Shown: piece after piece, positions 7,303-45,699 of the stretch
Position numbering within the stretch: position 1 is the first letter of the stretch
How the letters are laid out: each line of letters begins with the position of its first letter
Assembly (NCBI GenBank): GCA_965223415.1
Contig: OZ245002.1
Location: 3,808,001 to 3,872,000 of the forward strand
Reading direction: 5' to 3'
Source of the DNA: Myxococcota bacterium
GTDB taxonomy: Bacteria; Myxococcota_A; UBA9160; UBA6930
Length of the DNA stretch: 64,000 nucleotides
Made by a program: the position numbers and the translations under genes
Notes under the pieces: generated by a model
What the model saw: only the letters and a program-made list of their open reading frames with translations
What the model was told of the DNA's origin: nothing
Databases searched by the model: none

Positions 7303-7325
7303 CGCTCTTCTCCTTCCGCCGGCCC

Positions 7326-22538: not shown

Positions 22539-23906
22539 GTGCTCGGTCTGGTCGGTGAAGGTGACGGGGACGCGGAGGGGATCGGCGCGGCCGGGCAGCG
22601 CGATCCAGAGGTCGCCCTGGTGGCGGCCGGGGTGGCGCAGCTTCACGACGAGCTCGCCGGCGCGTTCGGCGAGCTGGGCCACTTCGGCGTGGCCCATGCC
22701 GACATGGAGGCTCGAGCCGACGACGACAGGGCGATCCGAGGTCGGCGTCAGGGCGAGCAGGCGGCAGCCGCCCGCCGGCACCTCGCGCGGCTCGATCGCC
22801 TCGACGACACCGAGCGGGCGGTTCGGCCAGAACTCGTAGACGTGGACCGGCGCTCCCGGAGGCTCGGGCAGCGCCTCCAGATCGAGGCCGAGGTGCGCGG
22901 GGACCGCGCCCGGGTTCCACAGCAGCACCGCGAACCGCCCTCCCCGCAGCGCCGCCGCCACCCCGTGCTCGCCCACCCGGCGCAGGGGCCGGGCCAGCGG
23001 GGGCAGGGCACGCCGCAGCAGGGTCGCCGCCTCGTCGCCGGCCTCGTCCGGGTGGCCGGCCAGCTCCACGTGCCCGCCGAGGCTGGCCAGGGAGAGCTCC
23101 GTCTCGAGCCGGGCCCGCCCCACGCTCGTCTCGATGGGCGGAGGACCCAGGTGCCATAGCCGCCCCGCCTCGTGGGCCCGGGCCGCCAGGTTCGACGCCG
23201 TGCGCACCGCGCCCGCGTCCTTCCCGGCCACGGCGAGGTGGGGGAGCGTCTGGCTGGTCCGGGCGCCGGGCCAGGACACAACGCCCCGGGGCACCACCCG
23301 CCCGCGGCGTTCCGCCGCCGCGCGCTCGGCCCAGGCTTCGAGCAGGGCGTGCTCTTCGCCGCCGACGCCGATCCACACCCGATCGCCGGGGCGCGCGACG
23401 CCTGGCGCCAGAGGAGCCTCCGCCGCACCGGCCTGCGCCGCGAGCCCGCCGCCCTCGGCGTGGATCCGGGCCACGCCGCCGCCCGTGAACCCGGCAAGCC
23501 CGCGAACCGTGCCATGGCGGAACAGACACCAGGCCCCGGTGGGATCGAAGCGTTCGCCCTGGGCCCCCGCGAGTACGAGGCAGGGCTCCTCGCTCCCGAC
23601 CACGGTGTCCGGGCCGCGGTTCTCGATGCCCAGCTGGTGGGTGAGCCCGCGTCCCGCAGCGTCCACCTCCAACACCCAACGCAGCGCCAAGGCACCCCGG
23701 GCGGCCCGCTGCACCTCGATGCGCTCGGCCGGCCCTGCGGCCGTCTTGATGCGCCCGCGCGCGACGATGGTTGGTGCCCCACCGGCGGACCACGGTGTTC
23801 GAAGCACGAGAGGCTGCCCTCCCGGCGCGAGCACGCGCGCCACGCCGCGGCGCGGCTCGACCTCGAGCCGCAGCCCTTCGCAACGCACCTCGATCATCGC
23901 CGACAC
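22512..23906 (-). CDS. Hypothetical protein resembling a degenerate alpha-galactosidase (GH36/GH27-like C-terminus)
   Basis: C-terminal VLLWN...VYEFW...VPAGGCRLL...PVVVGSSLHV resembles alpha-galactosidase C-terminal beta domains; no intact catalytic barrel recognised. Confidence 0.45.
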   Translation of the reverse strand: MSAMIEVRCEGLRLEVEPRRGVARVLAPGGQPLVLRTPWSAGGAPTIVARGRIKTAAGPAERIEVQRAARGALALRWVLEVDAAGRGLTHQLGIENRGPDTVVGSEEPCLVLAGAQGERFDPTGAWCLFRHGTVRGLAGFTGGGVARIHAEGGGLAAQAGAAEAPLAPGVARPGDRVWIGVGGEEHALLEAWAERAAAERRGRVVPRGVVSWPGARTSQTLPHLAVAGKDAGAVRTASNLAARAHEAGRLWHLGPPPIETSVGRARLETELSLASLGGHVELAGHPDEAGDEAATLLRRALPPLARPLRRVGEHGVAAALRGGRFAVLLWNPGAVPAHLGLDLEALPEPPGAPVHVYEFWPNRPLGVVEAIEPREVPAGGCRLLALTPTSDRPVVVGSSLHVGMGHAEVAQLAERAGELVVKLRHPGRHQGDLWIALPGRADPLRVPVTFTDQTEHNLTNGTGP

Positions 23907-23929
23907 AACGGGCCGGTATACTCGCGCCG

Positions 23930-24484
23930 GTGAAGATCTACACCAAGCGCGGCGACGCGGGGGAGACCGATCTGTTCGGCGGCCCCCGCGTCGGCAAGGA
24001 CGACCTGCGCGTCGAGGCCTACGGGGCCGTGGACGAGCTCAACTCCGTGTTGGGCGTCGCGGTCGCTGCTGGCGGCCAGGACGACCTCGCCGCCCTGACC
24101 CGCTCGCTGCAGGGCACGCTCTTCGACCTGGGTGCCTATCTCGCCTCTCCCGATGCGGAGCGGCGCGAGAAGAGCCGCATCCCCGAGCCTCGCATCGAGG
24201 ACGTCGAGGCGCTCGAAGCCCGGATCGACGCCTTCGAGGCCGAGCTCGCTCCGCTGCGCCGCTTCATCCTGCCTGGAGGCACGACCGCGGCCGCGGCCTT
24301 CCACCTGGCTCGCACCGTGTGTCGCCGCGCCGAGCGCCGTGCCGTGGCCCTGGACCGGGCCGAGCCCCTCGATCCCACAGCCCTCCGCTACCTGAACCGC
24401 CTATCCGATCTCTTGTTCGTGCTCGCCCGCGTGGAGAACCACCGGGCGGGCGTCGAGGATGTCGAGTGGGAGGGCGGCGGGTAG
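23930..24484 (+). CDS. pduO: ATP:cob(I)alamin adenosyltransferase (PduO type)
   Basis: KIYTKRGDAGET, AYGAVDELNS, FILPGG, ARTVCRRAER, YLNRLSDLLF. Confidence 0.95.
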   Translation: MKIYTKRGDAGETDLFGGPRVGKDDLRVEAYGAVDELNSVLGVAVAAGGQDDLAALTRSLQGTLFDLGAYLASPDAERREKSRIPEPRIEDVEALEARIDAFEAELAPLRRFILPGGTTAAAAFHLARTVCRRAERRAVALDRAEPLDPTALRYLNRLSDLLFVLARVENHRAGVEDVEWEGGG

Positions 24485-24625
24485 GCCGGGACCCGGCCGC
24501 GGCGGAGCGGACCCGATGATGCGCACCGGCTCCTCGAAGCGCGCGCGGATGCGGGCGCCGAGCCAGAAGGCCGCCACCAGCTCCAGCGCCAGCAGGATCA
24601 ACACCCAACGCCCCAGTCGCTTCAC
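24401..24625 (-). CDS. Small hypothetical membrane protein
   Basis: GTGA-coupled to the meaB stop; one TM segment; overlaps the pduO 3' end by 84 nt. Confidence 0.35.
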   Translation of the reverse strand: MKRLGRWVLILLALELVAAFWLGARIRARFEEPVRIIGSAPPRPGPGLPAALPLDILDARPVVLHAGEHEQEIG

Positions 24626-25635
24626 GTTCCCCCCTCACCGCCGCGGAGGGCGGCCTCGATCTCCCGGCCGAGCTCCTCGCCGAGGGCGAATCCCGAGCGA
24701 TCCGCCGCCGCCGCCAGTCGGGTGGCCAACGCTTCCTCCCCGCCCCACACGGCCAGGCCGTGGCTGCCGTAGCGGTGGAGCAGGCTGGTGCGCACCCCGG
24801 CGTCCCGCCCGCGCCGCCGACGCGCCTCGAGCTCCCGCGGTCGCAGGCTCTCGAGGTGGCTCTCCAGGGCCGCGTCGAGCTCGTCCATCCCCGAGCCGTC
24901 CCGGGCGGAGACGAGGACCACCGGAGGCCGCCACTCGCTCGCCCGTTCGCCGAGGCCCAGTCCCGCCGTCAGCTCGTGTGCGGTCCGCTCGGCCACCGGG
25001 CCGAGGTCTGCCTTGTTCACGGCCAGCACGTCGGGCAGCTCGAGGATGCCCGCCTTCATGAACTGCAGCAGGTCGCCGGCGCCGGGCTGGGCGAGGTAGA
25101 CCAGGGTGTCCGCCAGATCGGCCACTTCGCCTTCGCTCTGCCCGACGCCCACGGTTTCGACCAGCACCACGTCGAAGGCGGCCGCCAGGACCGTCACGCT
25201 GGCGCGGGCCGCTTCGGCGAGCCCGCCCAGCCGGTCTCGGGCGGCCATGGAGCGGAAGAAGACGCCCGGGTCCGCCGCCCCCGAACGCACGCGCATGCGA
25301 TCGCCGAGCAGCGCGCCGCCGGTGCGGCGGCTCGAGGGATCGACGGCCACCACCCCGACGGTCTGCTCCCGCCCGCGGAGGCGGCGCACCAACGCGTCGA
25401 GCAGCGTCGACTTCCCCGCGCCCGGCGCGCCGGTGAGGCCGATGCGCCGGGCCCCGCCCAGCAGCACCTTCTCCTCGAGGGCGGCGAGGAGTGCTGTCGC
25501 CTGGCGGCGCGCCTGCGGCCGGCCGTCGTCCACCAGGTTGAGGGCCGGGGCCACCGCCGAGCGGTCCCGTGCGAGCAGGCGCTCCGCGAGCTCCGGACGA
25601 GCCGCGTTCGGCTCCTCCCCGGCCCCCTCAGCCAA
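24622..25635 (-). CDS. meaB: MeaB/ArgK GTPase chaperone of B12 mutases
   Basis: GLTGAPGAGKST, AVDPSS, GALLGDRMR, ETVGVGQSE, NKAD; probable TTG start. Confidence 0.93.
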   Translation of the reverse strand: MAEGAGEEPNAARPELAERLLARDRSAVAPALNLVDDGRPQARRQATALLAALEEKVLLGGARRIGLTGAPGAGKSTLLDALVRRLRGREQTVGVVAVDPSSRRTGGALLGDRMRVRSGAADPGVFFRSMAARDRLGGLAEAARASVTVLAAAFDVVLVETVGVGQSEGEVADLADTLVYLAQPGAGDLLQFMKAGILELPDVLAVNKADLGPVAERTAHELTAGLGLGERASEWRPPVVLVSARDGSGMDELDAALESHLESLRPRELEARRRRGRDAGVRTSLLHRYGSHGLAVWGGEEALATRLAAAADRSGFALGEELGREIEAALRGGEGGT

Positions 25636-27604
25636 GGGCGCCGCCCGCCTCCACCACGTCGACGATCTCGTCCATGATGCGGGTGAGGTCGAAGTCCTTC
25701 GGCGTGTAGACGCGCTCGACACTGGCGGCGCGCAGGGCGTCGGCATCGTCGTCGGGGATGATGCCGCCGACCACGACCGGAACGGCGAGGCCCTCCGCCC
25801 GCAGCCCCTCGAGGACGTCGAGCACCAGCACCTGATGGGAGCCGGACAGGATCGAGAGGCCGATCACGTGCACCCCCTCGTCGCGGGCCGACTGCACGAT
25901 CTCCTCCGGGGTCAGGCGGATGCCGTCGTAGACGACCTCCATGCCCACGTCGCGGGCCTTCACGGCGATCTGCTCGGCGCCATTGCTGTGGCCGTCGAGG
26001 CCGGGCTTGCCGACCAGGATCTTGAGCGGGCGCCCGAGCTTCTCCCCACAGGCGCGGACGCGCTTCCGGACCTTCTCGTTGGCTTCGTCCGCCACCTGGG
26101 ACTCCCTCGCCACCACGCCGGTGGGGGCGCGGTACTCGCCGAAGAGCTTGCGGAGCGTGTCCGCCCACTGGCCGGTGGTCACCCCCGCATGGGCCGCGCG
26201 GATCGACGGCGGCATCACGTTCTCGCCGTTCGCCAGAGCGTCGCGCAAGCCCTGGAGCGCGGCTTCCACCTCGGCCTCGTTGCGCTTCGCCCGGAACGCG
26301 TTCAGCCGCTCGACCTGCTCGCGCTCCGCCGAGTCGTCCACCTTGAGGATGGCCGTGTCGTCGTCGCCGACCAGGGGCGAGGGCTCGGTCTCGGTGTAGA
26401 CGTTCACGCCGATCACCGGAAGCTCGCCGCTCTCGATCGCGCGCACGCGGGCGGTGTGGGACTCGACCAGACGCTGCTTCATGTAGGCGTTCTCGACGGC
26501 CGCCACGGCCCCGCCCAGGGCGAGCACCCGGTCGAGCTCCTCCTGGGCCGCCTTCTTCAGCTCCTCCACCTTCGCTTCGACGACGTGGGAGCCGTCGAGC
26601 AGGTCCGGGTACTCGAGCAGATCCGTCTCGTAGGCGAGGATCTGCTGGATGCGCAGGGACCACTGCTGGTCCCAGGGCCGCGGCAGCCCCAGCGCCTCGT
26701 TCCAGGCCGGGAGCTGGAGCGCCCGACAGCGGGCCTTCTTCGAGAAGGTGACCCCGAGCGCTTCGAGCACGATGCGCACCACGTTGTTCTCGGGCTGGGC
26801 CTCCGTGAGCCCGAGGCTGTTCACCTGCACGCCGTAGCGGAAGCGGCGGAGCTTCGGATCCTTCACGCCGTAGCGGTCGCGGCCGAGCTCGTCCCACAGC
26901 TCGGTCATCGCCCGGCCCTTGCAGATCTCCTCGACGAAGCGGATGCCCGCGTTCAGGAAGAAGGAGATGCGGCCGAACACCTCGGGGATCACGTCGTCGG
27001 GAACGTCCTCCCGTGCCTTCACCGCATCGAGGACGGCGATCGCGTTGGCCAGAGCGAAGGCGATCTCCTGGACCGGCGTCGCCCCCGCTTCCTGCAGGTG
27101 ATAGGAGCAGATGTTGATCGGGTTCCACTTCGGGATGGCGTGGACCGTGTGGGCGACCATGTCGCTGATCAGCCGCATGGAGGGCTCGGGCGGGAAGACG
27201 TAGGTGCCCCGGGAGAGATACTCCTTGATCAGATCGTTCTGGGTGGTGCCGCGCAGTCGGTCCGCCGCCACCCCCTGCCGCTCGGCGGCGGCCACGTAGA
27301 GCGCCAGCAGCCAGGCGGCCGTGGCGTTGATCGTCATCGAGGTGTTCATCCGGTCGAGGGGGATCTCCCGGAACAGCACCTCCATGTCGCCCAGGTGCCC
27401 GATCGGCACGCCGACCTTGCCGACCTCGCCGCGGGCGAGCGGGTGGTCCGCGTCGTAGCCCGTCTGGGTCGGCAAGTCGAAGGCGACGGACAGGCCGGTC
27501 TGGCCTTTCGCCAGGTTGGTGCGGTAGAGGGCGTTGCTGGCTTCGGCCGAGGAGTGGCCGGAGTAGGTGCGGAACACCCAGGGGCGGTCGCGTTCGGCGG
27601 CCAT
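25628..27604 (-). CDS. meaA: Ethylmalonyl-CoA mutase (MeaA/Ecm), B12-dependent
   Basis: PWVFRTYSGHSSAEASNALYRTNLAKGQTGLSVAFDLPTQ, ICSYHLQEAG, GVQVNSLGLTE, KPGLDGHSNGAEQIA. Confidence 0.93.
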   Translation of the reverse strand: MAAERDRPWVFRTYSGHSSAEASNALYRTNLAKGQTGLSVAFDLPTQTGYDADHPLARGEVGKVGVPIGHLGDMEVLFREIPLDRMNTSMTINATAAWLLALYVAAAERQGVAADRLRGTTQNDLIKEYLSRGTYVFPPEPSMRLISDMVAHTVHAIPKWNPINICSYHLQEAGATPVQEIAFALANAIAVLDAVKAREDVPDDVIPEVFGRISFFLNAGIRFVEEICKGRAMTELWDELGRDRYGVKDPKLRRFRYGVQVNSLGLTEAQPENNVVRIVLEALGVTFSKKARCRALQLPAWNEALGLPRPWDQQWSLRIQQILAYETDLLEYPDLLDGSHVVEAKVEELKKAAQEELDRVLALGGAVAAVENAYMKQRLVESHTARVRAIESGELPVIGVNVYTETEPSPLVGDDDTAILKVDDSAEREQVERLNAFRAKRNEAEVEAALQGLRDALANGENVMPPSIRAAHAGVTTGQWADTLRKLFGEYRAPTGVVARESQVADEANEKVRKRVRACGEKLGRPLKILVGKPGLDGHSNGAEQIAVKARDVGMEVVYDGIRLTPEEIVQSARDEGVHVIGLSILSGSHQVLVLDVLEGLRAEGLAVPVVVGGIIPDDDADALRAASVERVYTPKDFDLTRIMDEIVDVVEAGGALG

Positions 27605-29456: not shown

Positions 29457-30092
29457 TCAGCTCCGGATACGCCCCCGAGCCGCGAGGGCCGCGAGGCCCA
29501 GCCCGACGAGAGCCAGCGTGGACGCCTCGGGCACGCCGACGAAGGAGATGCTCTTGAACACGGTGATCTTCTTCCCGCCGTGGAAGAAGTGGAACATCTC
29601 CTCCTTGGCGGCCGTGATCGTGGCCGTGTCGCCGACCACGGTCACGGTGCCGCTCGCCGACGGAACCGTGGAGACGACGTTGAGCGGTCCGAGGTCCCCA
29701 AGAAGGCCTCCGGTGAGGCTCACCATGGCGTCCACGTCGAAGGCGCCTCCCGCCCAGTCCCAGGCGCCGGCGCCCGTGGGCGTGGCGGGCGCCGAGAAGC
29801 CCGGCGCGCTGGTCACGGTGACGTCGATGTCGAGGATGCCGAGCAGGAGCCCGAGGTCGATCGAGTCGCTCACGTCCCACATCACGTCGGTGACGGCCGG
29901 GATCATGTCGTCGAAGGTCGTCGACGTGCCCACGAGGGGCGCCGTGGTGCTCAAGACCGTGGATCCGTCGACGTCGATCTCGAGCAGGGCCGAGCCGCTC
30001 ACGAAGTCGTACGTGATCGGCGAGGCCGCCGCGGGGGAGCCGGCGAGGCACGGCAGCGCGAAGCCGAGGAGGAAGGCCTGAAGGGTACGCAT
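29457..30092 (-). CDS. PEP-CTERM sorting-domain protein (VPEA variant), paralog of 28470-29141
   Basis: Signal peptide; ITYDFVSGS...FDDMIPAV vs VTYTFSSGD...FDDMAPSI; VPEASTLALVGLGLAALAARGRIRS. Confidence 0.88.
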   Translation of the reverse strand: MRTLQAFLLGFALPCLAGSPAAASPITYDFVSGSALLEIDVDGSTVLSTTAPLVGTSTTFDDMIPAVTDVMWDVSDSIDLGLLLGILDIDVTVTSAPGFSAPATPTGAGAWDWAGGAFDVDAMVSLTGGLLGDLGPLNVVSTVPSASGTVTVVGDTATITAAKEEMFHFFHGGKKITVFKSISFVGVPEASTLALVGLGLAALAARGRIRS

Positions 30093-30122
30093 GGGGTTCC
30101 CCCTCATCCTGGGCCATGAGAA

Positions 30123-30138
30123 AGCAAGTCGCATGCCG
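30123..30138 (-). promoter_or_regulatory. Sigma-54 (-24/-12) promoter
   Basis: Minus strand CGGCAT-GCGAC-TTGCT, about 30 nt upstream of ATG 30092. Confidence 0.8.
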
Positions 30139-30201
30139 CTCGGGTTCGCTCTCCAACCGACTGGAAATGCAGCGCCTTTGATCGGGCCGGAAGCCTGAAA
30201 T

Positions 30202-30238
30202 GGAACTTCGGTTCCATTTTTTGTGGAACGACTTTTCC
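30202..30238. promoter_or_regulatory. Candidate enhancer (UAS): two GGAA-N6-TTCC palindromes
   Basis: GGAA-CTTCGG-TTCC (30202) and GGAA-CGACTT-TTCC (30225), 23 bp apart. Confidence 0.7.
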
Positions 30239-30263
30239 CTCCGCCCTGTGCAATGATCCGTCT

Positions 30264-31142
30264 GTGCTGCGTGCCCTCGATCACGTGATCCTGGCCGTGG
30301 AGGATCTTCCCGCCGCGACCCGCAGCTACGTCCGCTTGCTGGGCCGCACGCCGTCCTGGCGGGGAGAGCATCCCGCCATGGGCACCGCCAACGCCTTGTT
30401 CCGCCTCTCGAACATGTACCTGGAGCTGCTGGCCCCGGAGGGAGAGGGCCCGGTCGCGGACATGCTGCGCCGGCGGATCGCCGAGCACGGCGAGGGGCCG
30501 GCGGGCCTGGCCTTCCGCACCGATGACGCGGCCGCGTGCCACGACGCATGGGCGAAGGCCGGGCTCCACCCGGCCGAGCCCGCACCCGGCCTCGGCCGCG
30601 ATGTCGAGTCCGGCGCCTTTCGCGAGTGGAGCAACGTGCACCTGCCGCCGGAGGACACGCGCGGGGTGCTCCTCTTCGCCATCGAGCACCGCACGCCGGA
30701 CGACGTGCTCAGCGAAGCACGCCCCATGGCCGACGAGGCCGCCTGCATCGGCGGGCTCGACCACGCGGTCGTCCAGACCCGCGATCCCGAGGCGGCCATC
30801 CATCTCTACGGCGAGCAGCTCGGCCTTCGCCTCGGCCTCGACCGGGAGTTTCCCCAGTGGGGGTCCCGACTGATCTTCTTCCGCGTCGGCGGCGTCACCG
30901 TCGAGATCGCCGCCCGGCTGAAGGAGGACGGTGAGGCGTCGGCCTCCCGGGACCGGGACTGGCTGTGGGGGCTCTCCTGGAGAGTGAGCGACGCGGACGC
31001 CGCCCGGGCGCGCATGGCCGAGGCCGGCCTCGATGTCTCCGACGTGCGCGATGGCCGCAAGCCTGGCACGAAGGTGTTCACGGTACGTGGGCCGACCCAC
31101 GGGGTACCGACCCTGGTGAAGCAACCCGCCCCGCGGGATTGA
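30264..31142 (+). CDS. Tandem VOC/glyoxalase-family protein
   Basis: LDHVILAVEDL...LELLAP and a second LDHAVVQT...VEI module. Confidence 0.82.
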   Translation: MLRALDHVILAVEDLPAATRSYVRLLGRTPSWRGEHPAMGTANALFRLSNMYLELLAPEGEGPVADMLRRRIAEHGEGPAGLAFRTDDAAACHDAWAKAGLHPAEPAPGLGRDVESGAFREWSNVHLPPEDTRGVLLFAIEHRTPDDVLSEARPMADEAACIGGLDHAVVQTRDPEAAIHLYGEQLGLRLGLDREFPQWGSRLIFFRVGGVTVEIAARLKEDGEASASRDRDWLWGLSWRVSDADAARARMAEAGLDVSDVRDGRKPGTKVFTVRGPTHGVPTLVKQPAPRD

Positions 31143-32697: not shown

Positions 32698-32922
32698 TCA
32701 CGACTCGTAGAGCTTGACGACCTCGACGCTGCCCTTGGGCGCGGCCTCGATGCAGAGATCGCAGAGCACGCACTCGTCCAGGTTCTCCTCGACGATCCGG
32801 AGGCTCCCGTCGTCGTTCTGGGCGAAGATGTCGACGGCGCACACCTCGACGAGCTTCTTGGCCGTCTCGGCGTCCTTCGCGGCTTCGTCGGCGACCTTGA
32901 CGTCGATGAAGAGTCCGGGCAT
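32698..32922 (-). CDS. Small 4Fe-4S ferredoxin-like protein
   Basis: VCAV plus CVLCDLC; TGATG overlap with the upstream alpha-subunit gene. Confidence 0.8.
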   Translation of the reverse strand: MPGLFIDVKVADEAAKDAETAKKLVEVCAVDIFAQNDDGSLRIVEENLDECVLCDLCIEAAPKGSVEVVKLYES

Positions 32923-33830
32923 CAGCTGGCTCCCATGCGCTTGCGCAGGAGATCCGGGATCTCCTCGATGCGCTCTGCCACCGAGATGCCGGCGGCTTCC
33001 ATGCGCTCGATCTTCTCGGCCGTGGTGTCTTCCTTGCCCTCGACGATGGTTCCGGCGTGGCCGAAGCGCATGCCCTTCATCTCGTCCATGAAGCGGCCGG
33101 CCATGAAGGCGACGATCGGGAGGCGCGAGTCGTTCTGCTTGACCCACTCGGCGAGCTCGGCCTCCATGCGGCCGCCGGGCTCTGAGTAGATGGCGATGGC
33201 CTCCGTCTCCGGATCCGCCTCGAAGTAGGCCATCAGCTCGGCGTAGGTGGTGCCGACGATCGCGTCGCCGCCGATCGAGACGCAGGTGCTCTGGCCGAGG
33301 CCGGCGGCGGTCAGCGTCGAGGCGATCTCGGTGGTCATTCCGCCCGAGCGCGACATCACGCCGATCGGTCCCTTCCTGTAGGCCTGCTTGGTGTTGGCGG
33401 CGGGGCCGCCGACGCCGCCCATCTTGGCCTCGTCCGGCGAGATGATGCCCAGGCAGTTCGGTCCGATGATGCGCGCGCCGCGCAGGTTCGCGAGCTCGAC
33501 CATCTGCGCCACCTGGCGGCGTGGGATGTTCTCGGTCACCACCACGATCAGCTGGATGCCGTTCTCGATGGCCTCGAACACGGCGTCCCGGGTGAAACGC
33601 GGCGGTACGGAGACGATCGAGCCGCCCGGGGGGCCACCCTGGGCGTCGCAGATCTCCTTCACGCAGTTGTAGACGGGCACGCCGTAGACGTCGCGCCCGG
33701 CGCGTCCGGGCGTCACCCCGCCGACGATCTTCGCGCCGTAAGCCAGGTTCTCGCGGGTCAGGTTCACGGCCTCGCGGCCGGTGATGCCCTGGATGATGAA
33801 GGTCGTGTCCCTGGAGATGAAGATCGACAT
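32922..33830 (-). CDS. Succinate-CoA ligase alpha-subunit-like protein (SucD family)
   Basis: QGITG, VGGVTPG, IIGPNCLG, SRSGGMT, IGGDAI, phospho-His motif FGHAG. Confidence 0.88.
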   Translation of the reverse strand: MSIFISRDTTFIIQGITGREAVNLTRENLAYGAKIVGGVTPGRAGRDVYGVPVYNCVKEICDAQGGPPGGSIVSVPPRFTRDAVFEAIENGIQLIVVVTENIPRRQVAQMVELANLRGARIIGPNCLGIISPDEAKMGGVGGPAANTKQAYRKGPIGVMSRSGGMTTEIASTLTAAGLGQSTCVSIGGDAIVGTTYAELMAYFEADPETEAIAIYSEPGGRMEAELAEWVKQNDSRLPIVAFMAGRFMDEMKGMRFGHAGTIVEGKEDTTAEKIERMEAAGISVAERIEEIPDLLRKRMGAS

Positions 33831-33838
33831 CGGGCCCT

Positions 33839-35035
33839 CTACAGCTTCGCCACGGCGCGGCCCGCCGCTTCGTACATGGAGACGGAGCGGTCGCAGTACT
33901 CGACCCCGTACTTCTCGAGGATCTTGAAGCCCTCCTCCTCCCACGCTCCCGGAATGCGGAAGATCGAGATCACCTCCGCCGGGTCCTTGCCGCTCTCGAG
34001 GCAGCCCTTGATCACGCCCCGGGCCACGATGTCGACGCGGGTGTTGGAGACGACGTTCATCATCACCGCGATCTTCTCGACGCCGGGCTTGCCCAGGATC
34101 AGCTTGGTCAGGTTGCACGCCTTGCCGACGCTCGGGTTGCCACCGATCTCGCAGTAGTTGGCGGGCTTGCCCCCGTGCTTGCGCACCGCGTCGAAGAGGG
34201 TGAGGGAGCCGCCGCCGGCGCCAATGATGAGGCCCAGGTTGCCGTCGAACTCCACCACGTTTCCAGCCACGCCGCGGTGGTCCACCGCGTTGAGCCGTGC
34301 GCCCTCCAGCTCGAAGGGGGTGGGCGGCCGGGCCTGGCGGGTCTCGTCCTCGCCGATGCCGAGCTCCTCGAGCAGCGCCTGGTGGTCGCCCCGCGCCTCG
34401 GCCTCCATGTCCACGTGGCCGTCGAGGACGATGAACGAGCCGTTCTCGAGCTTCGCCAGCGGGTTGATCTCGGCCAGGGTGAGGTCGTACTCGAGGAACA
34501 GCTGGATCAGCTTGTAGACGATCGGCACCAGCCGGTTGAGATCGCTCCCCGAGACGCCCACCGCCGAGATCGCCTCCTTGGCGATGCGCTCGGACAGCGG
34601 GAGGATCGTCGAGAAGTGGGTGCGGGAGAGGTGCTCCGGATGGGTCTCCGCCACCTCTTCGATGTCGATGCCGCCCATGTCGCTGAAGAGCAGCACGGGC
34701 AGCTTGCGGCGGCCGTCCCAGGTGACCGACACGAAGTACTCGTGGGCGACCGGGCTCTTGGCTTCGACCAGCACCGAGCGCGCGGTCTCGCCGTTCACCA
34801 CGATCGGCAGCACGTGCTCGTACTTCGCGGCCGCCTCCTCCGGCGTGTCGGCGAACTGGACGGCACCCGCCTTCATGCGCCCGCCCGAGAGCACCTGGCT
34901 CTTGACCACGACCGGGCCCGCGATCGCCTCGGCGGCGGCGCGGGCCTCGTCGGGGGAGCCGACCACGCGGCCTTCGCCGAGGGGCATGCCGTGGCGGCGG
35001 AAGAGCGCCTTGGACTCGTACTCGTAGAAGCGCAT
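33839..35035 (-). CDS. Succinate-CoA ligase beta-subunit-like ATP-grasp protein (atypical)
   Basis: YEYESKALF, VVKSQVLSGGRMKAG, GGIDIEE, AEINPL; C-terminal GAGGG and ANYCEIGGNP differ from canonical SucC. Confidence 0.88.
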   Translation of the reverse strand: MRFYEYESKALFRRHGMPLGEGRVVGSPDEARAAAEAIAGPVVVKSQVLSGGRMKAGAVQFADTPEEAAAKYEHVLPIVVNGETARSVLVEAKSPVAHEYFVSVTWDGRRKLPVLLFSDMGGIDIEEVAETHPEHLSRTHFSTILPLSERIAKEAISAVGVSGSDLNRLVPIVYKLIQLFLEYDLTLAEINPLAKLENGSFIVLDGHVDMEAEARGDHQALLEELGIGEDETRQARPPTPFELEGARLNAVDHRGVAGNVVEFDGNLGLIIGAGGGSLTLFDAVRKHGGKPANYCEIGGNPSVGKACNLTKLILGKPGVEKIAVMMNVVSNTRVDIVARGVIKGCLESGKDPAEVISIFRIPGAWEEEGFKILEKYGVEYCDRSVSMYEAAGRAVAKL

Positions 35036-35174
35036 GCAGGTCTCCAGCCGCGAGGGCCCCGGGGGAACGGCGGGGCAGCGTACCACCGGGTCCCCGCCCT
35101 TCAAGGGCCCCCGGGCGGGCTCCCGAGCCGGTGTTAACCTCCCCCTCCTTCGCGAAACGAGGAGCCGAGCGCCG

Positions 35175-36341
35175 ATGCCGACCGTCCCCGCCTACTCGAT
35201 CACCACCGAGGCCATCGCCAAGGAGCAGGAGCGCGTCGGCTCCGATCCCTCCCAGTTCGACGTCTCCAACGTCCTGCAGCTCGATGAGCTCGAGCTCTCG
35301 CCCGTCGGGCCGAACGACGTGCGGATGAAGGTCCTGGCGGTCTCGGCCGAGCACAACATCGACCACGCGACGACTGCCGACACGATCAACATCGCCGACG
35401 CCCGGGGCGGCAAGATCTACCCGGGCAACAGTGCTACGGGCGAGGTGCTCGAGGTCGGCGCCAACGTGACGAAGTTCGTCCCCGGCGACATCGTCATCAC
35501 CCACTGCAACGGAGGGGCGGACGAGTACGGCTTTCCCCTGCGGATCTATGGCTACGACGCCGAGGACTCGATCGGCTGGTACGCCAAGGAGGCGGTGGTC
35601 ACCGACTGGCAGCTGATCAAGGCGCCGCTCGACTGCGGGCTCAACCTGTGGGAGATCGCCGCGCTGCCCCTGCGCGCGCCCACCGCCTACCACCTGTGGC
35701 GCCGCGCGATCGGCATCTACCGGGTGAAGGTCCCCTACGAGCGGCGCGCCCGGATCAACGTGCTGGGCTTCGGCGGCGGCGTCTCCGAGCTCTTCCTGAT
35801 GCTCGCCAAGGCCGAGGGCCACAACGCCTTCTTCTGCTCCGGAAGCCCCGAGCGCCGCGCCGCCCTCGAGAAGCTGGGCATCGTGGGCATCGACCAGAAG
35901 GCCTTCAACCGCTTCGCCAGCCGCGACGACGTGCGCGCCTTCACCAAGGAGTGCCGCCGGCTCACCGACGGCGAGCTGATGCACGCGGTTTGCGACATGC
36001 TGCGGGGCCCGGTCTTCGCCGCCGGCCTCGCGTGCACGGCGCGGCAAGCCGTGAACGTCAGCGCCGGATGGCAGCTCTCCCAGCAGGTCGAGTACAACTC
36101 GACGCTGATGTCGGTGAAGCAGGTGACCATCGACCACACCCACTACGAGACGCCCGAGGGCTGCGAGGCGGCGACCGAGCTCTACGGCAGCGTCTTCAAG
36201 CCGACCCTCCACGACGAGATCTACCGCTGGGACGACCTCCCGCGGGCCCACCAGGAGATGCACCTCAACACCCAGACGGGCATCCCGATCGTCCGCATCG
36301 CCGACGACATGCCGGAGGCGGTGAAGGGCCTCGTTCCCTGA
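35175..36341 (+). CDS. Divergent crotonyl-CoA carboxylase/reductase-like MDR enzyme
   Basis: MDR fold; blocks [35 protein letters not shown] and EIYRWDDLPRAHQEM parallel recalled Ccr blocks; RBS GAGGAG before ATG 35175. Confidence 0.7.
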   Translation: MPTVPAYSITTEAIAKEQERVGSDPSQFDVSNVLQLDELELSPVGPNDVRMKVLAVSAEHNIDHATTADTINIADARGGKIYPGNSATGEVLEVGANVTKFVPGDIVITHCNGGADEYGFPLRIYGYDAEDSIGWYAKEAVVTDWQLIKAPLDCGLNLWEIAALPLRAPTAYHLWRRAIGIYRVKVPYERRARINVLGFGGGVSELFLMLAKAEGHNAFFCSGSPERRAALEKLGIVGIDQKAFNRFASRDDVRAFTKECRRLTDGELMHAVCDMLRGPVFAAGLACTARQAVNVSAGWQLSQQVEYNSTLMSVKQVTIDHTHYETPEGCEAATELYGSVFKPTLHDEIYRWDDLPRAHQEMHLNTQTGIPIVRIADDMPEAVKGLVP

Positions 36342-37222
36342 GCCGATGGATCGCCTTCGCGGTCCTCGTGCTGCTGGTGCCGCTGCTCTACCGCATCGGG
36401 CGGTACGCGCCGCTGTTCGAGGAGCGCGCGGCGCTCGCGATCGATCGGAGCGCGGAGGGCCGCTCCCGCCAGGCTGCGGCGCCCCGGCGCGTGCTGCTCG
36501 TCTCGATCGACGGGCTGGGCCCGAGCCTGCTGGCGGAGGTGCCCACCCCCTTTCTCGATCGCCTCGCAGCCGATGGCCTGCAGGCGGAGGCAGTGACCAC
36601 CGTAGTGCCACCGGTCACCCTCACCTCCCACGCGAGCATGCTCTCCGGCCTCCCGCCGGAGGAGCACGGCGTCTTCTTCAACCGGGTCGAGCCCTGGCGC
36701 GAGCTGCGTTTCGCCACGATCTACACCGATTGCGCCCGGGCCCGCCTGCGCTGCGGCCTCTTCGCCGGCAAGCGCAAGTTCGTCCACTTCGCCGAGCACG
36801 AGCCCGGCGTCGAGCGCTACCAGTACGGCGCCAACGCCGCCGAGGTGCTGTGCCACGCCCTCCGCTACGCGCACCAGCGCGATCCGGACTTCCTGTTCGT
36901 GCACCTCGCGGAGGTGGATCTTACAGGTCACACCGAGGGCTGGGGAAGCGGCCTTCAGGCGCGGGCGCTGCAGGAAATCGATACCCGGCTCGCCGCCTTC
37001 GTCGCGGTCCTGGCGGAGCTCCCGCGGCCCCTCGTCGTGTTGGTCACCAGCGAACACGGCGGCAGTGGGACGAGCCATCACGAGGATACGCCCGCGAACC
37101 GCGAGATCCCCTGGATCCTGTGGGGCGATGGCGTCACCACCGACATCTCGCCGGCTGCCAGCACGCTCGACACCTACACGGCACTTCAGGGATTTCTGCT
37201 GCGATCGGCTCCTGGCAGCTGA
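36338..37222 (+). CDS. Alkaline phosphatase/NPP superfamily protein with N-terminal TM (start uncertain)
   Basis: VLLVSIDGL, PPVTLTSHASMLSG, VDLTGH, TSEHGG; start either CTG 36338 (coupled) or GTG 36368. Confidence 0.8.
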   Translation: MSRWIAFAVLVLLVPLLYRIGRYAPLFEERAALAIDRSAEGRSRQAAAPRRVLLVSIDGLGPSLLAEVPTPFLDRLAADGLQAEAVTTVVPPVTLTSHASMLSGLPPEEHGVFFNRVEPWRELRFATIYTDCARARLRCGLFAGKRKFVHFAEHEPGVERYQYGANAAEVLCHALRYAHQRDPDFLFVHLAEVDLTGHTEGWGSGLQARALQEIDTRLAAFVAVLAELPRPLVVLVTSEHGGSGTSHHEDTPANREIPWILWGDGVTTDISPAASTLDTYTALQGFLLRSAPGS

Positions 37223-38467: not shown

Positions 38468-39604
38468 GTGATCGTCGCCGTACCCAAGGACCGTCCCGAG
38501 GAGCGTCGTGTCGCCCTCACGCCGGACGGCGCCAAGACCCTCGCTCGCCAGGAGATCGAGGTGCGCGTGCAGAGCGGCGCCGGAAGCGAGGCGGGCTTCT
38601 CCGACGCCCAGTACGAGAAGGCCGGCGCCAAGGTCGCCGGCGATGCCGTGGCCCTGTTCGGCGAGGCGGACGTGGTGCTGCGGGTGAACGCGCCCACCGG
38701 CGAGGAGCGCAGCCGGCTGCGGAGCGGCAGCGTCTGGATCTCCCTCCTGCGCCCCCTGGACGAGCCCGGGGAGGTGAAGGCCCTGGCGGAGACCGGCGTG
38801 ACGGCCTTCTCCCTCGAGATGGTGCCGCGCATCACCCGCGCCCAGTCGATGGACGTGCTCAGCTCCCAGGCCACCGTCGCCGGATACCGCGCCGTGCTGC
38901 TCGCCGCCGAGCGCCTGCCCAAGATGTTCCCGATGCTGGTGACCGCCGCGGGCACGAGCTCGCCGGCCCGGGTGTTCGTGATCGGCGCCGGCGTGGCCGG
39001 CCTGCAGGCGATCGCCACCGCCAAGCGCCTCGGCGCCGTGGTGGAGGCCTACGACACCCGCGCCGCCGCCGCCGAGCAGGTGGAGAGCGTCGGCGCCAAG
39101 TTCGTCGTGCTCGATCTCGACGCCGGCGATGCCGAGGATGCCGGCGGCTACGCCCGCGAGCAGACCGAGGAGTTCTACGCCGCCCAGCGCAAGCTGATGG
39201 CGGAGAAGGCGGCGGCCAGCGACATCGTGATCACCACCGCCCTCGTGCCCGGTCGTCCGGCGCCGCAGCTCCTCGACGAGGGTGGCGTGGCCGGCATGGC
39301 CGCCGGCTCCGTCATCGTGGATCTGGCCGCGCCGAACGGCGGCAACTGCGCGGGAACCCGTGCCGGTGAAGACGTCGTCGTGGGCGGCGTGCACGTGCTC
39401 GGTCCCCTGAACCTGGCCGGCGAGCTGCCCTTCGACGCGAGCCAGATGTTCAGCAAGAACATCGTGACCTTCCTCCAGAACCTGATCGGTGAGGAGGGGG
39501 CGCTCGCGATCGACCCGGAGGACGAGATCGTGGCGGGCTCCCTCGTCGCGAAGGACGGCGCCGTCGTACACCCGGTCGTACTCGACAAGCTTGGAGGAAG
39601 CTGA
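38468..39604 (+). CDS. pntAA: NAD(P) transhydrogenase alpha subunit, part 1 (domain I)
   Basis: ERRVALTP, VPRITRAQSMDVLSSQA, IGAGVAGLQAIATA, ITTALVPG, GGNC. Confidence 0.95.
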   Translation: MIVAVPKDRPEERRVALTPDGAKTLARQEIEVRVQSGAGSEAGFSDAQYEKAGAKVAGDAVALFGEADVVLRVNAPTGEERSRLRSGSVWISLLRPLDEPGEVKALAETGVTAFSLEMVPRITRAQSMDVLSSQATVAGYRAVLLAAERLPKMFPMLVTAAGTSSPARVFVIGAGVAGLQAIATAKRLGAVVEAYDTRAAAAEQVESVGAKFVVLDLDAGDAEDAGGYAREQTEEFYAAQRKLMAEKAAASDIVITTALVPGRPAPQLLDEGGVAGMAAGSVIVDLAAPNGGNCAGTRAGEDVVVGGVHVLGPLNLAGELPFDASQMFSKNIVTFLQNLIGEEGALAIDPEDEIVAGSLVAKDGAVVHPVVLDKLGGS

Positions 39605-39907
39605 ATGCTCTCCGATCCGGCCGTCGCCCTCACGGTGCTGGTCCTGTCCCTGTTCGTCGGCATCGAGGTCATCTCGAAGGTGCCGCCGCTGCTCCACACG
39701 CCCCTCATGTCCGGCTCGAATGCGATCTCCGGCATCACCATCGTGGGCGCGCTCATCGCGGTGACCTCCGACAACCCGGTCGTCTCGACCTGGTTCGGCT
39801 TCGCCGCGGTGGTGTTCGCCACGATCAACGTGGTGGGGGGCTTCCTGGTGACGAACCGCATGCTCGCCATGTTCAAGCCCAAGCAGATCGAAGGCGGAGA
39901 CAAGTGA
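39605..39907 (+). CDS. pntAB: NAD(P) transhydrogenase alpha subunit, part 2
   Basis: VPPLLHTPLMSGSNAISG, NVVGGFLVTNRMLAMF. Confidence 0.95.
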   Translation: MLSDPAVALTVLVLSLFVGIEVISKVPPLLHTPLMSGSNAISGITIVGALIAVTSDNPVVSTWFGFAAVVFATINVVGGFLVTNRMLAMFKPKQIEGGDK

Positions 39908-41292
39908 GCGTCACCGCCCTGCAGATCGCCTACCTGGCGGCGGCGGTCCTGTTCATCGTCGGCCTGAAGATGCTCTCGTCGGCGAAGACCGCCGCCCGGG
40001 GCAACGCCATCGCCGCGTTCGGCATGGGCGTGGCCATCGTCACCACCCTCGTCGGCCAGGGCGTCCTGGGCTGGGAGTTCATCGTCGGCGGCGTCCTGCT
40101 CGGCTCGGTGATCGGCGCCTTCGCCGCCCTGCGCGTGCAGATGACCGCCATGCCGGAGATGGTGGCGCTCCTGAACGGCTCCGGCGGCGCCGCCTCGGCC
40201 CTGGTCGCCGGCGCCGAGCTGCTCTCCTACGCGAACCGCAGCCAGGTGCCGGACGGTGTCGTGTCCACCGCGATCGTGCTCTCCACCCTGATCGGTGCCG
40301 TCACGGTGACCGGCAGCGTGATCGCCTTCCTGAAGCTGGCCGAGAAGATGCCGGGCCAGCCCATCACCTATCCCGGCCAGCAGTTCGTGAACGCGATCAT
40401 CGGCCTCGGGGTGGTGGCCCTGTGCGTGATGGTGGCGACGAGCCCCCTCGAGCTCGGCCCGTACTGGATCCTGGCCGGCGTGGCGCTGGTGCTCGGCATC
40501 CTGCTCGTCATCCCGATCGGCGGCGCCGACATGCCCGTCGTCATCTCGCTCTTGAACTCCTATTCGGGGCTTGCGGCCTGCGCCACGGGCTTCGTGCTGA
40601 ACAACTCGGGGCTGGTGATCAGCGGCTCCCTGGTGGGCGCGTCGGGCCTGATCCTCACCAAGATCATGTGCGACGCCATGAACCGGTCCCTCGCCAACGT
40701 GCTCTTCGGCGCCTTCGGCGCGGCGCCGGAAGGCGGTGCCGCGGCCGCGGGCGAGCAGGGCACGGTGAAGGGCTACACGGCGGACGACGCCGCGGTGATC
40801 TTCAGCAACGCCCGCTCCTGCATCGTCGTCCCCGGCTACGGCATGGCGGTGGCCCAGGCCCAGCATGCGGTGCGCGAGCTGGCGGATCTCCTCGAGGAGA
40901 AGGGCATCGAGTGCCGCTTCGCGATCCATCCGGTCGCGGGCCGCATGCCCGGGCACATGAACGTGCTGCTGGCCGAGGCGGACGTCAGCTACGAAAAGCT
41001 GATCGAGATGGACGAGATCAATCCGGAGTTCCCCCAGACCGACGTGGCCCTGGTGCTCGGCGCCAACGACGTCGTGAACCCGTCGGCCCGGGCCGACACC
41101 GGGAGCCCGATCTACGGCATGCCGATCCTGGACGTGGATCGCGCCCAGCACGTGTTCGTCATCAAGCGTTCCATGAACCCGGGCTTCGCCGGCGTCCAGA
41201 ACCCGCTCTTCTTCAACGAGAACACGATGATGATCTTCGGCGACGCCAAGGGCACCGTGCTCGCCCTGGTCGACGCCGTCCGCGAGTACTGA
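39904..41292 (+). CDS. pntB: NAD(P) transhydrogenase beta subunit
   Basis: MPEMVALLNG, IGGADMPVVISLLNSYSG, PGYGMAVAQAQH, HPVAGRMPGHMNVLLAEA, GANDVVNP. Confidence 0.97.
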   Translation: MSVTALQIAYLAAAVLFIVGLKMLSSAKTAARGNAIAAFGMGVAIVTTLVGQGVLGWEFIVGGVLLGSVIGAFAALRVQMTAMPEMVALLNGSGGAASALVAGAELLSYANRSQVPDGVVSTAIVLSTLIGAVTVTGSVIAFLKLAEKMPGQPITYPGQQFVNAIIGLGVVALCVMVATSPLELGPYWILAGVALVLGILLVIPIGGADMPVVISLLNSYSGLAACATGFVLNNSGLVISGSLVGASGLILTKIMCDAMNRSLANVLFGAFGAAPEGGAAAAGEQGTVKGYTADDAAVIFSNARSCIVVPGYGMAVAQAQHAVRELADLLEEKGIECRFAIHPVAGRMPGHMNVLLAEADVSYEKLIEMDEINPEFPQTDVALVLGANDVVNPSARADTGSPIYGMPILDVDRAQHVFVIKRSMNPGFAGVQNPLFFNENTMMIFGDAKGTVLALVDAVREY

Positions 41293-44508: not shown

Positions 44509-45699
44509 ATGAGCGACGCATGGCGCGAGTTCGATCTCTTCCATCCGACCCCGGAGCATCGGCTCCTGGCGGATACCCTGCGTGAGTTCGTGGCTCGCGA
44601 GGTCGAGCCCCAGGCCGCCGAGCACGACCGCCGCGAGGCCTTCAACCTGGCGCTCTTCCGCCAGGCGGGCGAGCTGGGGCTGCTGGGCATCACCCTGCCC
44701 GAGGAGCTGGGCGGAGCCGGCATGGACGCGACGGCGGCGGTGCAGGTGATGGAGGCGCTCTGCACCTCCGATCCCGGCTTCGGGCTGGCCGTGCTCGCCC
44801 ACGCGATCCTGTTCGCCCAGAACGTCAACGTGAACGGCAACGAGCTGCAGCGCAAGCACGTGCTGCCGAAGGCCGCCAGCGGCGAGTGGGTGGGCGGCCT
44901 GTGCATGACCGAGCCGCAGGTCGGCACCGACGTGCTCTCGCTGCGCACGAAGGCCGTCCGGGACGGCGACGAGTACGTGCTGGACGGGGTGAAGACCTTC
45001 ATCACCAACGGCGGCATCGACGACCAGACCCTCGGCGACTGCTTCGTCGTCTACGCGGCCACCGCACCCGGCGAGATCTCGAGCTTCCTGGTCGAGAAGG
45101 GCGACCCGGGCTTCCGGCTCGGCCAGAAGTGGATCGACAAGCTCGGCATGCGGGCGTCGTTCACGGCGGAGCTGGTCTTCCAGCAGGTGCGGATTCCCCT
45201 CGCGCGCCGCATGGGAGAGGAGGGCCAGGGCACGCTCCAGATGATGCGCAACCTGGAGGTCGAGCGGCTCGCCCTTGCCGCCATGGCCCTGGGCATCGCC
45301 CAGCGCTCCCTGCAGGTGATGGTCGGCTACGCGAACGATCGCAGGGCCTTCGGCGTGCCGATCCGGGAGCACGGGCAGATCCAGCGCTACCTGGCGGAGC
45401 ACTTCGCCGCCTGGCGCTCGGCCCGCGCCTTCGTCTACGACACTGCCCGCCAGATCGACCTGGCGTCCACGGGCCAGCGCGTGCTGGCGGACGCGGCGAA
45501 GCTCGTCGCGAGCCAGATGGCCAAGGCCGCCGCCGACGCCGCCATCCAGGTGCTCGGCGGCTACGGCTACATGGGCGAGTACACCGTCGAGCGGCTGTGG
45601 CGGGACGCGAAGCTCCTCGAGATCGGCGGCGGCACGCTGGAGGCGCACCACAAGAACCTCGCGAAGGACCTGTGCCGGAACCCGGCGCTGCTGGACTGA
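44509..45699 (+). CDS. Acyl-CoA dehydrogenase (isovaleryl-CoA dehydrogenase-like)
   Basis: MTEPQVGTD, KTFITNG, KLGMRAS, LEVERL, RAFG, QVLGGYGY, WRDAKLLEIGGGT. Confidence 0.92.
   Translation: MSDAWREFDLFHPTPEHRLLADTLREFVAREVEPQAAEHDRREAFNLALFRQAGELGLLGITLPEELGGAGMDATAAVQVMEALCTSDPGFGLAVLAHAILFAQNVNVNGNELQRKHVLPKAASGEWVGGLCMTEPQVGTDVLSLRTKAVRDGDEYVLDGVKTFITNGGIDDQTLGDCFVVYAATAPGEISSFLVEKGDPGFRLGQKWIDKLGMRASFTAELVFQQVRIPLARRMGEEGQGTLQMMRNLEVERLALAAMALGIAQRSLQVMVGYANDRRAFGVPIREHGQIQRYLAEHFAAWRSARAFVYDTARQIDLASTGQRVLADAAKLVASQMAKAAADAAIQVLGGYGYMGEYTVERLWRDAKLLEIGGGTLEAHHKNLAKDLCRNPALLD

Follow-up and report, generated by a model that had tools for sequence, protein, structure and literature searches.

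Enoyl-CoA carboxylases/reductases (ECRs) form the core of synthetic CO2-fixation cycles. In the known ethylmalonyl-CoA pathway, the product of crotonyl-CoA carboxylase/reductase (Ccr), ethylmalonyl-CoA, is the substrate of ethylmalonyl-CoA mutase (Ecm), and thiolase, epimerase, Ecm with MeaB, mesaconyl-CoA hydratase, and malyl-CoA lyase provide steps of the same pathway. The available text of PMC6628652 describes ECRs as the fastest known CO2-fixing enzymes and gives N81, F170, E171, and H365 as the CO2 pocket of the Kitasatospora setae enzyme (KsCcr; native numbering). Here we describe a gene for a 388-amino-acid (aa) medium-chain dehydrogenase/reductase (MDR), located at 35175..36341 in a 64,000-nucleotide stretch of Myxococcota DNA (contig OZ245002.1, positions 3,808,001 to 3,872,000, referred to as the window). 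The encoded protein, called the target below, probably represents a second, uncharacterized lineage of Ccr-type enzyme. We put the chance that it is an NADPH-dependent crotonyl-CoA reductive carboxylase of a noncanonical lineage, performing the Ccr step of an ethylmalonyl-CoA-type pathway, at somewhat better than even.

Relationship of the target to ECRs

A Pfam search of the target returned weak matches to ADH_N (34.6 bits; gathering threshold, 23.5) and ADH_zinc_N (34.8 bits; gathering threshold, 31.8) and nothing else. The top NCBIfam model was TIGR01751, the Ccr equivalog, which matched residues 29 to 370 with an E value of 4.4e-22. This is the remote Ccr homology that a preliminary description of the locus had proposed, at a score under the model's cutoff. 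Five annotated reference Ccr proteins, all from plasmids, score 567 to 670 bits on this model. In the Protein Data Bank (PDB), the top sequence match was Methylobacterium extorquens Ccr (4gi2; E = 6.6e-13, or 1.1e-17 with the family profile), and when hhalign was used to compare the family profile with the five Ccr proteins, the probability was 99.8 and the E value 1.3e-27 over 329 columns. All six blocks of Ccr collinearity that had been picked out by eye were recovered both in the phmmer alignment to 4gi2 and in the hhalign comparison.

An AlphaFold2 model of the target, built on a 56-sequence alignment, reached a pLDDT of 95.7 and a pTM of 0.93. When this model was compared with the PDB by Foldseek, ranks 1 to 18 were all ECRs (4gi2, CinF 4a0s, 3krt, 3hzz, 6owe/6na3, and AntE 4y0k) with TMq values of 0.77 to 0.84; 4gi2 matched with an E value of 2.8e-28, 6owe had a TMq of 0.84, and ordinary alcohol dehydrogenases followed from rank 19 on. 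The predicted structure has the ECR-type MDR fold. By sequence, profile, and fold, ECRs are the nearest known relatives of the target. Acrylyl-CoA reductases (AcuI/YhdH, TIGR02823; archaeal, NF041172) are also NADPH-using MDR enoyl-CoA reductases, but the target scores 15.3 bits on TIGR02823 (cutoff, 297.25) and 11.9 bits on NF041172 (cutoff, 500). Its score on the PIG3 quinone reductase model TIGR02824 is 43.6 bits, under the cutoff of 296.8. A propionyl-CoA-synthase-type reductase was also considered and set aside, no such chain being present among the PDB sequence matches or in the 50 listed Foldseek ranks.

The phylogeny was inferred from 55 sequences with IQ-TREE in quick mode and was rooted on a thin outgroup of only two quinone oxidoreductases; support values are SH-aLRT percentages. 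The five Ccr proteins formed one clade (99), and the target family, together with relatives of approximately 380 aa, formed another (99; branch length, 1.11), within which the target family was a tight subclade (95) with very short branches. With this two-sequence outgroup, the target clade lies beside the Ccr clade, not within it. The alignment and tree place the target, as far as they resolve it, in a separate lineage that appears sister to ECRs, neither nested in nor visibly derived from them. The preliminary description had offered either a new clade of reductive carboxylases or a reductase derived from ECRs. A distinct, conserved clade outside canonical Ccr is indeed what the tree recovers; derivation from ECRs is the part that did not hold. 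The target is of the same ancestral stock as ECRs and probably ECR-like in its working, yet it falls outside them by equivalog score and by tree.

Several features are common to the target and ECRs. The two are collinear over approximately 330 residues of a predicted zinc-free MDR fold with NADPH-type Rossmann features; the target keeps counterparts of N81, H365, and F170, the last as Tyr, which is a natural variant among ECRs; and in genomes the target family is found linked with ecm/meaA and with genes for an epimerase, a mesaconyl-CoA hydratase, and a malyl-CoA lyase. In contrast, the target is shorter than the five reference proteins (388 aa versus 401 to 457 aa) and, by alignment, has neither the N-terminal extension nor the acidic loop insertion that precedes RIWG[FY]E. 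It also carries Asp at the Glu171 position and the glycine loop GFGGG in place of the ECR loop GASGGLG, and the family-specific invariants E59, H64, N85, and W299 set it further apart.

The wider group of MDR proteins of approximately 380 aa consists of full-length distant matches with the motifs W-E-[GA]-N-x-x-H-A, [AG]-Y-D, W-G-G-G, and H-T-H-Y. These proteins share with the target family their clade (99% support), a similar length, the invariant residues E59, N61, H64, N85, D128, and W299, and the near-invariant residues Y127, R167, and H323. They differ from it in being only 22 to 41% identical to the target and in occurring in Streptomyces, Actinomadura, Burkholderia, and Azospirillum in other gene contexts. 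Those with any NCBIfam match hit the Ccr model in most cases, at scores far under the cutoff. The only names given to them are "zinc-binding dehydrogenase" and UniRef's "Alcohol dehydrogenase BadC," and no characterized member was seen in the family-model and name look-ups.

Predicted CO2 pocket and cofactor site

In the K. setae ECR chain 6na3_A, the pocket residues have chain indices 83, 172, 173, and 367, which are the native numbers plus 2. Alignment of the target to this chain paired N81 with N61, F170 with Y127, and E171 with D128. The pairwise alignments placed H365 at either H321 or H323, and H323 was the choice of both hhalign and the 56-sequence alignment. The hhalign comparison with the five Ccr proteins paired N61, Y127, D128, and H323 with the Ccr residues N, F/Y, E, and H, and these four residues are invariant in 26/26 target-family members. 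These sequence and profile alignments agree with the earlier proposal that Asn, Tyr, and His are kept and Glu is replaced by Asp. As aligned, the target would retain the Asn81, Phe/Tyr170, and His365 elements of the ECR pocket.

KsCcr variants reported in the available text of PMC6628652 indicate what each position contributes. The F170Y variant has an ethylmalonyl-CoA share of 100%, Tyr being natural at position 170, and the E171A variant has a share of 97% with a 17-fold-lower kcat and a 25-fold-higher Km for crotonyl-CoA. The share falls to 19% in N81L, for which the other effect is given as "not determined," and to 17% in F170A, which has a kcat of 8.3 per s compared with 103 per s for the wild type. 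That text contains no mention of an E171D variant. The residues that weigh most on the choice between carboxylation and reduction, N81 and F170, are thus the ones kept in the target, and the single altered pocket residue is the one whose loss shifts this choice least.

The nucleotide-binding loop was confirmed as GFGGG, as first read, with SFGGG in some members, and is followed by S222-G-S-P-E-R227-R228. The second Rossmann strand ends without an acidic residue, and R227 and R228 are invariant in the 26-member alignment. This pattern is consistent with the use of NADPH, as in Ccr. In an alignment with cinnamyl alcohol dehydrogenase (2cf5), E59, N85, and R167 of the target fall at the motifs CH[ST]D, GHE, and LLCAG, whose C, H, and C, respectively, we take to be the catalytic zinc ligands. 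On that assumption, the catalytic ligand set (Cys, His, Cys/Glu) is absent from the target, which is very probably zinc free, like Ccr. The many invariant polar residues of the family include E59, H60, H64, R167, R176, and R177.

Gene neighborhoods and the reading they favor

The window encodes a fused B12-dependent acyl-CoA mutase of the MeaA/Ecm type and a MeaB-type GTPase near the target, as expected of an ethylmalonyl-CoA pathway gene set (Table 1). Over 98 to 99% of its length, the mutase shares 63 to 66% identity with MeaA-type enzymes from Paracoccus, Ruegeria, Streptomyces, and Methylobacterium, and 2 of its 12 top records are annotated "protein meaA." It scores 533 bits on the methylmalonyl-CoA mutase (Mcm) equivalog, under the cutoff of 876. 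Between the mutase gene and the target gene lies a two-domain glyoxalase-fold gene, present in 9/80 related loci, whose product is possibly an ethylmalonyl-/methylmalonyl-CoA epimerase, to judge from its sequence. The genes divergent from the target gene encode the two subunits of an ADP-forming acyl-CoA ligase. The SucC-like subunit reaches neither the SucC nor the malate-CoA ligase equivalog cutoff, and the SucD-like subunit is likewise under the succinate-CoA ligase cutoff. In related loci this pair is cotranscribed with a malyl-CoA lyase gene; malate, succinate, and a C5 acid are candidate substrates.

Table 1. Positions of features in the window, with members of the wider MDR group examined in other sequences (last row)
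Feature	Position	Strand	Remarks
PduO-type cobalamin adenosyltransferase	23771..24484	+	beside mutase and MeaB genes
MeaB-type mutase-associated GTPase	24622..25746	-	TIGR00750, 253.8 bits (cutoff, 240.75)
Fused B12-dependent acyl-CoA mutase, MeaA/ethylmalonyl-CoA mutase type	25628..27604	-	7.6 kb upstream of target gene
Two-domain glyoxalase-fold protein	30264..31142	+	between mutase and target genes; TIGR03081, 63.8 bits (cutoff, 114.95; weak)
sucD-like alpha subunit (CoA_binding + Ligase_CoA)	32934..33830	-	3' of sucC-like gene; 86% identity to sucD-like protein of locus L076
sucC-like ATP-grasp beta subunit, ADP-forming acyl-CoA ligase	33839..35035	-	divergent from target gene; likely start 35035, not open reading frame start 35104
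Divergent intergenic region, sucC-like gene/MDR gene	35036..35174	.	139 bp
AGGAG Shine-Dalgarno-like motif	35160..35164	+	10 nt 5' of ATG 35175; read from sequence
Target MDR gene	35175..36341	+	388 aa + stop, uninterrupted frame; zinc-free MDR, candidate Ccr-like enoyl-CoA reductase/carboxylase
pntAA, pntAB, pntB: proton-translocating NAD(P) transhydrogenase, NADPH source	38468..41292	+	3' of target gene after two unrelated genes
Wider-group members examined	P0151-P0266; L083 5962-7131; L089 3917-5014

Relatives of the target are encoded in 286 genome stretches of a species-level collection with one genome per species. The counts given here refer to the best 80 of these stretches (L numbers are locus labels), which comprise 46 from Actinomycetota, 34 of them Acidimicrobiia, 24 from Myxococcota, and a few others. 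Neighbors were counted by tblastn at at least 45% identity over at least half of the query within 8 kb of the target homologue. Acetyl-CoA acetyltransferase (thiolase) was found in 36/80 loci and methylmalonyl-CoA epimerase in 35/80, followed by the sucC-like gene (22/80; median identity, 82%), the sucD-like gene (17/80), a mesaconyl-CoA hydratase-like gene (16/80), pntAA (14/80), a malyl-CoA lyase of the HpcH lyase type (7/80), and MeaB (4/80). At least one acyl-CoA pathway neighbor was present in 68/80 loci, and the Ecm/MeaB arrangement of the window recurred in L003, L021, and L060.

Two arrangements stand out among these loci and never occur together in one locus. Thiolase/epimerase loci number 41 and are all from Actinomycetota; ligase/lyase/hydratase loci number 26, of which 18 are from Myxococcota. 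A representative epimerase scored 141.7 bits on TIGR03081, passing the cutoff of 114.95, and the hydratase-like protein had 4e3e and 8hgn (beta-methylmalyl-CoA dehydratase) as its best PDB matches. The HpcH lyase matched 4l7z/4l80 with an E value of 1.4e-145 and the Rhodobacter-type Mcl 4l9y far more weakly (E = 1.1e-57). We take 4l7z/4l80 to be the Chloroflexus malyl-/beta-methylmalyl-/citramalyl-CoA lyase of the 3-hydroxypropionate bi-cycle; the database label reads only HpcH/HpaI aldolase. The lyase gene lies directly beyond sucD in L011, L050, L060, L067, L071, and L076.

When the window and the 80 loci were searched by tblastn with two Ccr queries, no canonical ccr was found in them, and the target gene alone matched. 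Of the 8 plasmid records in which both genes were located, 4 have canonical ccr no more than 2 kb from meaA. Because the neighbors represent steps of the ethylmalonyl-CoA pathway and the step lacking among them is that of Ccr, and because the pocket is kept and a transhydrogenase is encoded nearby, a crotonyl-CoA reductive carboxylase is the most economical reading of the target. Of the two functions put forward in the preliminary description, carboxylase and reductase, these pathway neighbors favor the carboxylase.

From the homology and fold, the invariant residue equivalences, and the gene neighborhoods, we infer which substrate the target uses, that NADPH is its cofactor, and that it carboxylates, as follows. 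Hydride would pass from NADPH, supplied by PntAB, to C3 of crotonyl-CoA, and the resulting enolate would capture CO2 to give (2S)-ethylmalonyl-CoA. In the putative CO2 pocket, N61 would serve as the anchor and Y127 as a water shield, with an ordered water held by D128 and H323. The neighboring epimerase and the Ecm/MeaB/adenosyltransferase set would then epimerize and rearrange the product.

A broader proposal is tentative, and we consider it rather doubtful: the target family and the wider group might together constitute a second lineage of reductive enoyl-CoA carboxylases, parallel to ECRs and built on an Asn/Tyr/Asp/His pocket. Such a lineage would serve both central metabolism, as an ethylmalonyl-CoA pathway without canonical Ccr in Myxococcota and Acidimicrobiia, and the supply of polyketide extender units through members linked to polyketide synthases (PKS) in Azospirillum and Streptomyces. 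As a compact, 388-aa deep lineage with an altered Tyr/Asp pocket, the target lineage would offer an independent natural experiment on the construction of CO2 pockets and a new scaffold for engineering.

A number of observations weigh against reductive carboxylation. The target scores 78.4 bits on TIGR01751, far under the curated cutoff of 378.55, which leaves it outside the equivalog, and its identity to Ccr is just approximately 21 to 27%. Glu is not kept at the Glu171 position, which is Asp in 26/26 family members and in 56/56 sequences of the wider set. Across those 56 sequences, which include the relatives of 22 to 41% identity, N61 and D128 never vary, and conservation is at least 90% for Y127 and H323. 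Since the wider group has this residue set in common in other gene contexts, the pocket alone is no proof of carboxylation, and the four residues may serve a general catalytic need instead of CO2 binding. One wider-group gene, in Burkholderia arboris, lies amid genes for a family III CoA-transferase, an HpcH lyase, and a PrpD-like protein, and another, in Azospirillum, lies between a PKS terminus (ER-KR-ACP-TE) with KAS III and an acyl-CoA/AMP-ligase. A PKS neighborhood is itself a typical ECR context, and the Azospirillum gene is a single case. The neighborhoods also have gaps. Ecm was found in as few as 3/80 loci, 12/80 loci have no acyl-CoA pathway neighbor, and the search for canonical ccr was confined to the window and the 80 loci. 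No thiolase, mesaconyl-CoA hydratase, or malyl-CoA lyase was found by tblastn in the 64-kb window. The acyl-CoA dehydrogenase at 44509-45699 was considered as a methylsuccinyl-CoA dehydrogenase (Mcd) and rejected, its best PDB matches being isovaleryl-CoA dehydrogenases (E = 6.8e-79, versus 1.9e-43 for Mcd 6es9), and the window showed no Mcd-like dehydrogenase. Finally, no enzyme assay of any target-family member was found.

The low equivalog score, the separate clade, the Asp for Glu, and the recurrence of the pocket residues in relatives outside ethylmalonyl-CoA pathway contexts would all suit a noncarboxylating NADPH enoyl-CoA reductase (crotonyl-CoA to butyryl-CoA or acrylyl-CoA to propionyl-CoA) that has ECR ancestry and active-site architecture but protonates the enolate. 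The thiolase adjacency suits such an enzyme as well, as a reductase of reverse beta-oxidation. We nevertheless regard it as unlikely, for a bona fide methylmalonyl-CoA epimerase in 35 loci and Ecm/MeaB in the window and three loci are hard to square with a plain acyl-CoA product, and the residues whose loss makes Ccr a reductase, N81 and F170, have invariant equivalents in the target. If the target is only a reductase, the four "CO2-pocket" residues are insufficient to diagnose carboxylation. The Myxococcota-type loci, with their adjacent sucCD-like ligase, malyl-/citramalyl-CoA lyase, and mesaconyl-CoA hydratase-like genes, would suit a C5-dicarboxylyl-CoA reductase (mesaconyl- or itaconyl-CoA to methylsuccinyl-CoA). 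Its partners would be Ecm and the neighboring lyase, hydratase, and ligase, either in a route for C5-dicarboxylates or in part of the ethylmalonyl-CoA pathway run in reverse, and the "CO2 pocket" would house the substrate's own carboxylate. The lyase and hydratase weakly match the itaconate-degradation models RipC and RipB, the neighbors of the Burkholderia gene described above are in keeping with this function, and the invariant residues E59, H60, H64, R167, R176, and R177 would suit an anionic substrate. However, the 41 Actinomycetota loci with thiolase and/or epimerase are free of lyase, hydratase, and ligase genes out to 8 kb despite 75 to 78% identity of the enzyme, and these pathways are not known to include such a reductase, which makes this function rather improbable.

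We consider it very improbable that the target is some unrelated MDR oxidoreductase whose substrate is an alcohol, aldehyde, or quinone and whose pathway neighbors are coincidental. That possibility draws on the generic Pfam matches, on the names in use ("zinc-binding dehydrogenase" at NCBI and often "NADPH:quinone reductase-like" at JGI), on the 12 loci without acyl-CoA pathway neighbors, and on 2cf5 as the second-best PDB sequence match, although over the N-terminal 225 residues only. Against it, the presence of E59, N85, and R167 at the presumed 2cf5 zinc-ligand motifs makes a zinc alcohol dehydrogenase mechanism unlikely, the nearest relatives are ECRs in the sequence, profile, and fold comparisons, and acyl-CoA pathway genes occur in 68 loci, among which two phylum-specific arrangements recur.

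Family distribution, annotation, and gene model

Members of the target family are 70 to 89% identical across Myxococcota and Acidimicrobiia. A word-indexed protein search gave 2160 matches at an E value of at most 0.001; the 120 matches listed are all 75 to 89% identical to the query, itself excepted, and 385 to 403 aa long. In an exhaustive HMMER search of 1.84 billion representatives, only 303 proteins reached the same E value, which indicates that the family is isolated in sequence space. One locus (L030) comes from a cultured isolate, Salinilacustrithrix flava, whose orthologue occupies L030 7974-9149. Between Myxococcota and Acidimicrobiia the enzyme is 75 to 78% identical, with within-family branches of 0.03 to 0.16 substitutions per site, and the surrounding gene order of the two groups is wholly unlike. 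This cross-phylum similarity suggests very strong constraint or a fairly recent interphylum transfer. Two contigs of one metagenome-assembled genome (MAG; JBKJLU01), L042 and L044, each carry a family copy that is 75% identical to the query, which may mean two paralogues in some genomes or else a mixed bin.

The preliminary description had expected a generic automatic annotation. That was right for NCBI, where the listed homologues are named "zinc-binding dehydrogenase" or hypothetical, but at JGI 24 of the 120 are already called "crotonyl-CoA carboxylase/reductase" and 19 "NADPH:quinone reductase-like." The clusters found in the ESM Atlas were all generic "zinc-binding dehydrogenase" ones. 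A full-text literature search, which left most subscription journals outside its scope, found no account of the target family and none of an ECR pocket variant with Asp. The available text of two reports lists "ccr" from MAGs of marine Acidimicrobiales (PMC4337565) and of Myxococcota (PMC10576062), and these counts may already include the target family through KEGG-type annotation. With NCBI and JGI naming at present inconsistent, the target lineage would provide a corrected ethylmalonyl-CoA pathway marker for environmental Myxococcota and Acidimicrobiia.

The target gene itself is as first described: an intact gene by its open frame, its G+C content at third codon positions (GC3), and the starts of its homologues. 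The frame is free of stops and has a GC3 of 0.95, the value expected for a true gene at the 71% GC of the window, and frame statistics show this value for the forward frame from 35175 alone. The mechanical open reading frame (ORF) starts at 35034; the Met at 35175 is the start in the 26-sequence alignment, barring two longer N-terminal calls. No sigma-70 consensus was found in the divergent intergenic region. A promoter/terminator scan returned no promoter-like site and one terminator-like site, which was not above chance. An antisense ORF of 1229 aa (32922-36611, reverse strand) and other overlapping ORFs were rejected as high-GC artifacts, the GC3 of 0.95 being confined to the forward frame of the target.

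Several other genes were noted in the window. An ORF of 555 aa whose C terminus bears a PEP-CTERM motif (29457-31124, reverse strand) overlaps the glyoxalase-fold gene by approximately 860 bases on the opposite strand. It is shorter than listed or partly spurious, because the glyoxalase is better backed (Pfam E = 1.3e-35; GC3 of 0.90 versus 0.81). Genes for the alpha and beta subunits of an electron-transfer flavoprotein (6355-8108, reverse strand) could serve acyl-CoA dehydrogenases of the same metabolism. An IS-type transposase gene (DUF772 + DDE_Tnp_1; 46646-47764, forward strand) directly follows an acyl-CoA dehydrogenase/enoyl-CoA hydratase pair. Immediately 3' of the target gene, a gene at 36344-37222 (forward strand) is concealed within a longer ORF (35648-37222), and its GC1 of 0.73, GC2 of 0.50, and GC3 of 0.88 fit coding sequence. 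The encoded protein begins with a hydrophobic stretch at its N-terminal end and contains a PF01663 domain (type I phosphodiesterase/nucleotide pyrophosphatase; E = 8.9e-28). In L010, the one representative scanned, the gene directly 3' of the MDR gene likewise encodes a PF01663 protein; its blastp cluster, which was formed without the window product, has further members in L003, L004, and L071.

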